From assembly GCF_003019035.1 (NCBI RefSeq), contig NZ_CP027447.1: a stretch of DNA of 64,000 nucleotides. One strand, 5' to 3'. The translations under genes were made by a program, and so were the position numbers. This stretch comes from Escherichia coli (GTDB lineage: Bacteria > Pseudomonadota > Gammaproteobacteria > Enterobacterales > Enterobacteriaceae). Numbering within the stretch: the stretch's first letter is position 1; the number at the start of each line of letters is the position of its first letter. The notes beneath the pieces were generated by a model that saw nothing but the letters and a program-made list of their open reading frames with translations, had not been told where the DNA came from and made no database searches. Shown here piece after piece: positions 29,501-31,168 of the stretch.

Positions 29501-31168
29501 GGTGACACGATACGCCGCACCGTCACTGGCGGAGACGGTTAACAAATAGCGGCTTGGTTTATCTGCGGCGGGGAGATTTAACGCCACATGACCGCTATCG
29601 TCGGATACCGTTTCACTGCCTTCCAGCGACACGGGAAAACGTCCGGCATAACGCAAATCGTTACCGACCATTGATAATTGCTGAGCGCGCAAACTTAACT
29701 GCACACGGGCATCTTTTACCGGCTCACCATCCGGGTAGAGCAGTTGCAGTTTGCCGCTGACCGCTTCGCCAGTTTTGAACTCTTTTTTGTCGAGAGCTAA
29801 GCCAATCTCGAAATGTGGCTTGATGTAGTTTGCCACGCGAAAACTACTGCTATAGACCTGATTGCGGTAAGCAAGACGTAACTCATAACCTCCGGCAACG
29901 GCATTTTCTGGCAGGCGGAAACTCCCCTGCCCGCCATTGCGCGCATCCAGCGTGACATTGATGGTTTGCAACAGACTGCCGTTAGCGTCCAGCACCGAAA
30001 GCTTCGCCGGGGCGCTGACGATGGGGGATGAATGCAACGGATCGTGGAACTCGCGCCCCATCACTTTAACATCGACACGATCGCCTGCGCGATATAGCGG
30101 GCGATCGGTAAAGATATACAAGCGGGTGTTGTAGATTTCACTTTCGTAGAAGAAGTTCTCGGAGACAAAAACGCCGCCTTCCGCATCTTTACCCAGAATG
30201 TATGAGCGTTCCGGCGATATATGTTGTAACTGCAAGGTACCGCTGTCATCGGTCACCCCGCGTGTCATCACGCCAAGACCGTCAGTCCACAGGATCTCTG
30301 ATCCCGGCTTCGCTTCACCCTGTATTTTACCTGCGGTCCACACCAGAAGCTCGTTACCTGACACTTTGCTAAGCGCCACGGTATCGGAAACAAACACCAC
30401 CGTCGTCGCCCGATACCCACCTATCATCGCCTCGACGAGGTACAATCCCGGCTCTTGTTTGCCGAGAGGAATATAAATGTTACCCGGCTGCGGCAAGATG
30501 AAATTGTTGGATGCGCCTTCCAGTTTTACCCCTTGCTGCGGCTCGACCGGTTTAGCCTGCCATAGTGGATAACGGAATTGTTCCACCAGTGGATATTTTT
30601 TCAGCGGTGAAAACTGGCTGTTCTGTACATAACGGGAAGGTTTAACAATGGCATTACCGAGCTGTAATTCGGGTAACGCCTGAGTCACATTCTGCCGTGA
30701 CTGAGAAGAGAAAGTACGCTGCATTACACGGCGAGATTTGCCATACCAGTTATCCCACAGCCAGGTCAGCGTATTGTTTAGCCCGTCGCCCAGATATTGC
30801 GGTTGCACCACAATGCGATGCAGGTTTTTCTGCTGGCGCAAAAATGCCATCGGGTCAGGAATACGATACAGGCGAACGTCCACGCCACCGTACTCTTCCA
30901 TCTGATAGCGTCGATAATCACGCCCCGGCGCTTCCAGTCGCACTTTCGCCTCTTCACTGCTGCTAAAACTGCTGTCAGCGAGCAAAAAGAATGTTCCCCC
31001 GGCGGGCGGCGCATAGTTACTGGAAGGAAGCGAATCATCAGCATTAGCAAGCCCTGTTCCCACAAGAGACAGGCAAAAGCACGCTGCTATCGCGCCAGAA
31101 AATTTAAACGATAAATGCCAATGAAATTGGGATTGGAATCGTTGGGTATCCATCGGGTGTCCTTCCAT
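26549..31168 (-). CDS. yfaS: YfaS, alpha-2-macroglobulin family protein, full-length (1539 aa by ORF track; start may be the ATG at 31153)
   Basis: Single uninterrupted ORF; N-terminal hydrophobic signal-like segment; only 3 Cys and no CxEQ thioester motif in the translation. Confidence 0.85.

Follow-up and report, generated by a model that had tools for sequence, protein, structure and literature searches.

In a 64,000-nucleotide (nt) stretch of Escherichia coli DNA (contig NZ_CP027447.1 of assembly GCF_003019035.1; hereafter the window), the gyrA-yfaA-yfaT-yfaS-yfaQ-yfaP cluster lies on the minus strand, to which all window coordinates below refer, and the macroglobulin gene yfaS most likely begins before its upstream neighbor yfaT has ended. 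Our analysis points to the ATG at 31153 as the likely start of yfaS, within a conserved and apparently ancestral initiation region encoded in the YfaT motif WKDTRW. The yfaT gene (31087..31710; 207 amino acids; a MagC homologue according to the RefSeq annotation of identical DNA and to Pfam DUF1175) ends with TAG at 31089-31087, and the long open frame of yfaS, -1 (+2) relative to yfaT, runs intact in the window from 31168 to 26549. The first-pass annotation had placed both candidate ATGs of yfaS, 31168 and 31153, inside yfaT, and these coordinates were confirmed. Its estimate of a 65 to 82-nt overlap was correct at the upper end (82 nt from ATG 31168, including the stop codon) and approximate at the lower, where the overlap from ATG 31153 measures 67 nt. 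This dual-coding segment (31087..31153) is made up of 64 nt of sense codons from yfaT and its stop codon, and holds the last 21 codons and stop of yfaT together with the first 22 codons of yfaS in the -1 frame. Judged by the sequence comparisons described below, the arrangement exceeds chance.

We compared four candidate starts by the energy of their duplex with the anti-Shine-Dalgarno sequence, which was -5.5 kcal/mol for ATG 31153, +0.7 for ATG 31168, -1.5 for an ATA at 31090 and +0.6 for a GTG at 31063. Only ATG 31153 has a Shine-Dalgarno sequence: GGAAGGA at 31160..31166, contained in the yfaT codons Trp182-Lys183-Asp184 and placed 6 nt upstream of the start. The probable start codon itself (31151..31153) joins the last base of yfaT Arg186 (CGA) to the first two of Trp187 (TGG). 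The Shine-Dalgarno sequence and start codon would thus be encoded within the codons Trp-Lys-Asp-Thr-Arg-Trp, and the site fits a canonical initiation region, with the Shine-Dalgarno sequence within 5-10 nt and a start codon conserved across orthologues. Both ATGs had been put forward as candidates; the evidence favors 31153 over 31168, which lacks a Shine-Dalgarno sequence and is variable. Downstream of 31153 the yfaS frame contains no ATG, GTG or TTG before the GTG at 31063-31061, and the next in-frame ATG is reached 188 nt beyond the end of yfaT, which bears out the earlier statement that none occurs between that stop and the signal-peptide region.

Initiation at ATG 31153 would give a predicted Sec signal peptide of 38 residues (31040..31153), judged by eye from the translation and a hydropathy profile, with R5 and K17 in the n-region, a hydrophobic core at residues 18-30 and predicted cleavage after ANA and before DDSLP. 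Orthologues align at the predicted cleavage motif, (A/V)xA followed by (E/D)D. Translated in the -1 frame across the end of yfaT, the opening 21 codons of yfaS would supply an extended, mildly basic n-region in front of the hydrophobic core and the ANA-DD site. Since the overlap codes for the n-region of a signal peptide that is cleaved, the mature periplasmic protein would be unaffected by it. The GTG at 31063 is codon 36 counted from ATG 31168 and codon 31 counted from ATG 31153; it lies at the end of the hydrophobic core, and starting there would delete the signal peptide, as the first-pass annotation had proposed. In the Pseudomonas extensions, a twin-arginine translocation (Tat) signal based on TRR was considered and rejected, because the RR pair precedes the hydrophobic core by 17-25 residues and QR is found in E. 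coli.

The junction was then compared across orthologues. An alignment of YfaT led to 80 genome loci, mostly from Pseudomonas, plus Escherichia species, Superficieibacter, Enterobacillus, Yersinia and Methylobacter; 120 metagenome loci were collected with the degenerate pattern W-K/N-D-T-R-W-I-P and 7 more by exact-protein look-ups. After removal of duplicates, these about 200 loci yielded 148 distinct yfaT/magC-yfaS/magD junctions, a set in which the P. aeruginosa magC-magD junction is not included. Positions are counted from the first base of the stop codon of yfaT, which puts ATG 31153 at -64 and ATG 31168 at -79. The codon at -64 was ATG in 143/148 junctions, GTG in 3/148 and CTG in 2/148; TTG was found in two further short loci outside this table, and GTG also in more distant loci fetched later. 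GGAAGGA was present in 142 of the 148, and the family mean duplex energy at the -64 start was -5.4 kcal/mol. The internal-start pattern spans Enterobacterales, Aeromonas, many Pseudomonas groups and a distant clade with ~61-66% YfaT identity. When the orthologues were checked for a conserved non-ATG start past the yfaT stop, none emerged. The ATG, the Shine-Dalgarno sequence and the open frame are instead conserved across distant genera against codon bias, which upholds the earlier view of the long out-of-frame overlap as real and not a start-codon artefact.

Both CTG cases are Methylobacter-type junctions, in which a ~225-nt inverted-repeat insertion keeps the two genes apart and the macroglobulin gene starts at an ATG of its own (signal sequence MNNPLLFRCVLISLLLGMAAVVSA, followed by EP). 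The block around the former start has decayed there: AAG has become AAA, CGA has become CGC, TAT has become TAC, and GAT-GAA forms a stop in the former yfaS frame. This decay indicates that the block is tied to the adjacency of yfaS and not to the function of YfaT. The insertion itself, at 3562-3790 of the Methylobacter oryzae locus (L077) and also in locus L117, carries the long inverted repeats GGAACACGGATGGCACGGATTAGACGGAT and ATCCGTCTAATCCGTGCCATCCGTGTTC and resembles a small repeat element.

Conservation at the nucleotide level was concentrated in the block CAACAACTTATGACATGGAAGGACACCCGATGGATACCCAAC (31141..31182), which we read as the yfaS translation initiation region on the basis of its low synonymous diversity and fixed rare codons. 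Over the last 180 yfaT codons the ratio of observed to expected synonymous diversity reached its minimum, 0.19, at this block, against 0.5-0.9 elsewhere, and the minimum covers about -35 to +12 relative to the ATG, which matches the footprint expected of an initiation region. The codons CAA, ACA, CGA and ATA are fixed in the block. In a rare-codon test on 130 high-GC (guanine plus cytosine) junctions, Arg was encoded by CGA in 127/130 (background 2.4%), Thr by ACA in 114 of 115 Thr codons (2.3%), Ile by ATA in 115/130 (1.0%), Gln by CAA in 128/130 (24%) and Lys by AAG in all 130 (69%). These data show that the sequence features of the site are conserved against codon bias, from which we infer that ribosomes initiate at ATG 31153. 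A start site can evidently be embedded in a conserved motif of a protein (WKDTRW) and held there by rare codons even at ~62% GC (range 50-70%).

The frame itself provided further evidence. From -64 to +60 the yfaS frame was open in 146/146 junctions, compared with ~70% expected from synonymous resampling and 66% in same-frame upstream control windows. Within -63 to -1, a third-position T, which would make a stop in the yfaS frame if the next codon begins with AA, AG or GA, occurred before such codons in 0 of 596 cases and before other codons in 525 of 2284. In the upstream control the corresponding figures were 229/2649 and 1344/10605. At codon -18, for example, Asp was encoded by GAT in 24 cases, none of them with a following codon that began with GA (0/49). 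Lys in the yfaS frame, read from a TTA Leu codon, was rejected as a signature of dual coding; it appears only in Enterobacteriaceae and is confounded with phylogeny and GC content.

A second start, at the stop codon of yfaT/magC, has to be considered together with the internal one. An ATG overlapping the TGA stop (ATGA) was found in 122/148 junctions, mostly from Pseudomonas; it lacks a Shine-Dalgarno sequence (family mean -0.06 kcal/mol), as expected for termination-reinitiation. In E. coli the same position (31088..31090) is occupied by ATA and reads ATA-G, so that the ATGA/TGATG feature of termination-reinitiation is missing. Twenty-four junctions have ATA, CTG or GTA in place of the stop-overlapping ATG, among them all those of Escherichia, Superficieibacter and the Salmonella-type loci, along with Enterobacillus and several of Pseudomonas (including P. 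jinjuensis and P. schmalbachii), and all 24 keep the start at -64; the 2 Methylobacter-type junctions have CTG at the stop-overlap position. The hydrophobic core of P. jinjuensis and P. schmalbachii starts right at the stop (LILLLLALLPFAGARA, followed by ED) and no other start precedes the cleavage site; these species need an upstream start, because nothing else can supply an n-region. By these sequence counts, the -64 start is more widely conserved than the -1 start, and E. coli has only the former. The internal initiation region would represent an ancestral feature of the yfaT/magC-yfaS/magD junction in gamma-proteobacteria; the Enterobacteriaceae would have lost the stop-overlapping ATG when the stop changed to TAG or TAA, and with that loss E. 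coli would have come to depend on the internal start.

The conserved region can also be folded. A hairpin is predicted at 31098..31166, with the Shine-Dalgarno sequence and ATG in its 5' arm (31166-31142) and the last yfaT codons in its 3' arm (31121-31098). In it GGAAG (-77 to -73) pairs with CTTCC or TTTTC (-13 to -9), CGAUGGAU (-66 to -59) with (A/G)UCUAUCG (-27 to -20), and CCGA with UCGG. Such a structure would bury the Shine-Dalgarno sequence and the start, and a ribosome on the last yfaT codons would open it. Across 79 sequences 95.7% of the cells can pair, against 34-48% when the 3' partner is slid, and RNAalifold independently finds the same helix, with a small covariation term. Compensatory changes were seen in 3 of 19 pairs, including A-64:U-22 to G:C in the GTG lineages and G-54:C-31 to A:U in Escherichia. 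At the site whose pairing partner is the A of the ATG, Tyr is encoded by the rare codon TAT in 72 of 80 cases against a background of 28%. Synonymous recoding of either arm gave mean z-scores of only -0.6 and -1.0, and the native enteric sequence is less stable than its recoded versions, for which reasons hairpin stability was rejected as proof of selection; the E. coli hairpin (-12.5 kcal/mol; z = +0.71 against shuffles) is not significantly stable. Translational coupling was one of the two implications that the first-pass annotation drew from the overlap; in the structure-mediated form considered here, the coupling of yfaS to yfaT translation is plausible but unproven, and from the predicted pairing of the initiation region with the last yfaT codons we infer, more weakly than the start itself, that initiation may depend on yfaT translation. 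A search of 30700-31800 against Rfam, on both strands and with E-values up to 1, gave no match, and no sigma-70-like promoter was found inside yfaT.

A programmed -1 frameshift was considered as another route between the two frames. The heptamer A_AAT_TTT at window positions 31102-31108 (yfaT Leu-Asn-Phe) fits, as A_AAU_UUU, the X_XXY_YYZ slippery pattern, and slippage there would carry ribosomes from yfaT into the frame of yfaS; no structure was identified downstream of it. It occurs only in Escherichia and one Superficieibacter, with G_AAU_UUU or G_AAC_UUU in Pseudomonas, and was rejected as probably a coincidence.

Several observations weigh against initiation at ATG 31153 or against its importance. 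In Pseudomonas the final codon of magC has A in third position regardless of the residue encoded (CGA, CAA, AAA, GCA, CCA), and the stop-overlapping ATG is therefore under selection there as well; it yields canonical signal peptides of 20-26 residues. That ATG is the annotated MagD start, and a MagD(1-64)-mCherry fusion reaches the periplasm (PMC3735191), so that the internal ATG is not needed for function there. The counts given above come from phylogenetically related loci and overstate the number of independent events. An A or G at -64 can also pair with a U of the predicted hairpin, which partly confounds the preference for ATG or GTG over CTG. In some E. coli strains (K-12, AR_0013) yfaS is a pseudogene, and selection on it in E. 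coli may be relaxed. Our searches of the literature on start-site ribosome profiling and N-terminomics found no experimental start-site or N-terminal data for YfaS; neither yfaS nor yfaT is listed in the supplements of the tetracycline ribosome-profiling, TRAINSPOTTER N-terminomics and INRI-seq papers, and literature searches on yfaS returned nothing on its start site.

Three other starts were weighed against ATG 31153. The GTG at 31063 (31061..31063), 24 nt past the yfaT stop, would avoid the long overlap and give a protein of 1504 amino acids; long overlaps are usually mis-annotations, and this GTG is the RefSeq start in every E. coli record inspected, with many 1504-amino-acid entries to match. 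We nevertheless give it almost no credence: the codon, V31 of the longer protein, has no Shine-Dalgarno sequence and yields a product without a signal peptide, although the homologue MagD is periplasmic (PMC3735191). It is not conserved either, being GCG in E. albertii and absent in Superficieibacter, and in every orthologue the frame upstream of it is open and encodes the hydrophobic core. Re-initiation by yfaT-terminating ribosomes at the non-canonical ATA at 31090-31088, which overlaps the TAG, draws on the homologous position being ATG in 122 of the junctions and the annotated MagD start, and on its A having survived in Escherichia, Superficieibacter and one of the two Salmonella-type junctions. 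In E. coli, ATA can act as a weak start, at ~1% or less of the efficiency of ATG; the product, IAACFCLSL..., would have no charged n-region, and the position reads GTA in one Salmonella-type locus and CTG in several Pseudomonas, which makes this route highly improbable. The upstream ATG (31166..31168), the first of the open frame, would extend YfaS to 1539 amino acids with the 82-nt overlap and is used by some GenBank records, and its A is widely conserved (ACA, AAA or CAA before TGG). It is still a very unlikely start, as its codon becomes CTG or TTG in several Pseudomonas lineages (where, before TGG, AAC, AGC or CAC stands in place of Thr181 or Thr is spelled ACT), and in Salmonella-type junctions TGG-AAT-GAC places an in-frame TGA between -79 and -64. 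Rather than marking a start codon, the conserved A at -79 may be part of the initiation region or of an A-N-GGA motif.

A different kind of explanation holds that the block is mainly a regulatory RNA, either a CsrA/RsmA site or the hairpin, that its start is unused, and that E. coli yfaS is poorly translated or decaying. Within 18 nt of the block GGA occurs three times, twice as AUGGA (A-N-GGA; 15 nt apart) and once as AGGA, all in stems and not in loops of the predicted fold; the hairpin is conserved in form, and yfaS or yfaQ is a pseudogene in several E. coli strains. The mag operon is repressed by RsmA, with a sole documented RsmA site in the magA leader (PMC3735191), and in the RsmA crosslinking and immunoprecipitation (CLIP) and modelling literature PA4489 (magD) appears only in a microarray list, with no binding data found for this region. 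A pure RNA element leaves unexplained both the stop-free yfaS frame over 64 nt and the full signal-peptide frame in lineages that have no other start, and we consider it unlikely. Since CsrA sites usually overlap genuine initiation regions, a regulatory role would be largely compatible with initiation at ATG 31153. More speculatively, the junction might hold a gated second ribosome entry in the 45-nt block of yfaT/magC: a Shine-Dalgarno start masked by the last magC codons, possibly bound by CsrA/RsmA through the two AUGGA motifs, beside the reinitiation at ATGA. Macroglobulin output could then be set independently of scarce MagC/YfaT, two precursors would give one mature protein, and the Enterobacteriaceae would have kept the gated entry only. 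We regard this scheme as a tentative possibility.

The long overlap is genuine, conserved and uncommon, and it falls within familiar types of arrangement, namely embedded start sites, coupling between operon genes and dual in-frame starts. Like coupled ATGA/TGATG junctions, such as the ATGA at yfaA/yfaT in the window and at most Pseudomonas magC/magD junctions, yfaT and yfaS are same-strand operon genes with the downstream start inside the upstream gene. Unlike them, E. coli yfaS would start 64 nt before the stop with its own strong Shine-Dalgarno sequence, 21 codons would be read in two frames, and ATGA has become ATAG. In E. coli rpmI-rplT and the coat-replicase genes of phage MS2, translation is coupled by unmasking of a structured initiation region, and the predicted yfaT-yfaS hairpin likewise pairs the Shine-Dalgarno sequence and start with sequence of the upstream frame; the difference is that this structure is predicted only, covaries in three pairs and, in E. 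coli, is no stabler than shuffled sequence. The genes infB and clpB each have two in-frame starts that give long and short products. Pseudomonas magD resembles them with two conserved in-frame candidate starts 63 nt apart (-64 and -1), and differs in that both precursors would give the same mature protein after signal-peptide cleavage, while E. coli keeps the upstream start only. Same-strand overlaps of more than 60 nt are usually dismissed as start-codon errors, and the yfaT-yfaS junction is a well-supported genuine case.

The proposed yfaS coding sequence (26549..31153; 1534 amino acids) encodes a type II, or MagD-like, bacterial alpha-2-macroglobulin, as judged by its intact reading frame, Pfam domains and database entries. 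YfaS has the Pfam domains MG2, A2M_BRD, A2M and bMG10, and no CxEQ thioester motif was found in its sequence; the domains and the missing motif assign it to the MagD type, and the operon order agrees. P. aeruginosa MagD (PA4489), encoded in the magABCDEF operon, is periplasmic with a cleaved signal peptide (PMC3735191). The operon has the same order (DUF2138, DUF1175, alpha-2-macroglobulin, YfaQ, YfaP), and MagD shares with YfaS the four domains, the absence of CxEQ and a predicted Sec signal peptide. It differs in its annotated start, an ATG yielding a signal peptide of 26 residues, and E. coli is without the stop-overlapping ATG of most other Pseudomonas. MagC was undetected in any cell fraction although MagD was abundant, and extra higher-mass forms of MagD appeared in a magE deletion (PMC3735191, PMC5764988). 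The P. aeruginosa studies assumed a start at the stop codon, and the more deeply conserved upstream start could bear on magC deletions, higher-mass MagD and RsmA control. If MagD has an independent upstream start, and hence a longer precursor, the undetected MagC and the higher-mass MagD would be worth revisiting.

The overlap is implicit in some annotations and denied in others. RefSeq, through PGAP, starts yfaS at GTG 31063 in all the E. coli records that we inspected, either as a 1504-amino-acid protein or as a pseudogene with those bounds. The 1534-residue form starting at ATG 31153 is already known, being present in Swiss-Prot (A2MGH_ECO57) and in older GenBank records, and the 1539-residue form also occurs in GenBank. 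These forms were looked up with the exact O157 and FY10 YfaS sequences, since the exact YfaS of the window is absent from the collection; a protein search with the YfaS N-terminus returned fragments only. In Aeromonas, the gene caller picked the same internal start as 31153. The comparative evidence decides the conflict for the long form, and the RefSeq GTG start is very probably wrong. In the records inspected, yfaS is consequently 30 codons short and without its export signal, which affects localisation predictions and construct design.

Within YfaT, the Pfam DUF1175/NlpC-P60-like domain covers residues 20-205 of 207 and so reaches the last residues, and the C-terminal 31 residues are near-invariant in the YfaT alignment. 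The other junctions of the operon are tight: yfaA and yfaT share ATGA, the TAA of yfaS is directly followed by the GTG of yfaQ, and yfaQ and yfaP are separated by 4 nt. The yfaT-yfaS junction is found at >=95% identity in 5378 of 5426 complete E. coli genomes, and some complete genomes (H29, H30 and H55) match only part of it. The window itself has a yfaS frame free of internal stops and a full-length yfaQ open reading frame (ORF) of 549 amino acids. Internal stops occur in yfaS of K-12 AB1157 (L002, 6738-11252) and AR_0013 (L001, 6738-11252), and in yfaQ of O157:H7 JEONG-1266 (L003, 11253-12902). Pseudogenes in several strains suggest that selection on the operon in E. coli is relaxed or differs between strains.

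The YfaT protein of E. coli is 91-96% identical to that of other Escherichia species, 78-80% to that of Superficieibacter and 70-75% to Pseudomonas MagC, which is its closest relative apart from the first two. The junction block (31141-31182) is nucleotide-identical between E. coli and Pseudomonas. Horizontal spread of bacterial macroglobulins was reportedly proposed long ago, and the identity of the block and the closeness of YfaT to Pseudomonas would fit a horizontal spread of the operon. In an E. coli-like metagenome contig (L106, ~3480-3515), homology to yfaT breaks ~82 nt before the stop, just upstream of GACATGGAAGG, and gives way to unrelated AT-rich sequence, which places the end-point of a rearrangement or insertion just upstream of the start-site block. 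The 23-mer TGGAAGGACACGCGATGGATACC is also found, behind non-homologous upstream sequence, at the 5' end of an unrelated ORF of 425 amino acids in metagenome contigs L124, L172 and L195. That ORF opens at the ATG of the 23-mer (MDTPAAV...), which plausibly serves there too as a Shine-Dalgarno sequence plus start codon, and its first 120 residues have a weak, sub-threshold match to MFS_1 (24.5 bits against a cut-off of 33.4).

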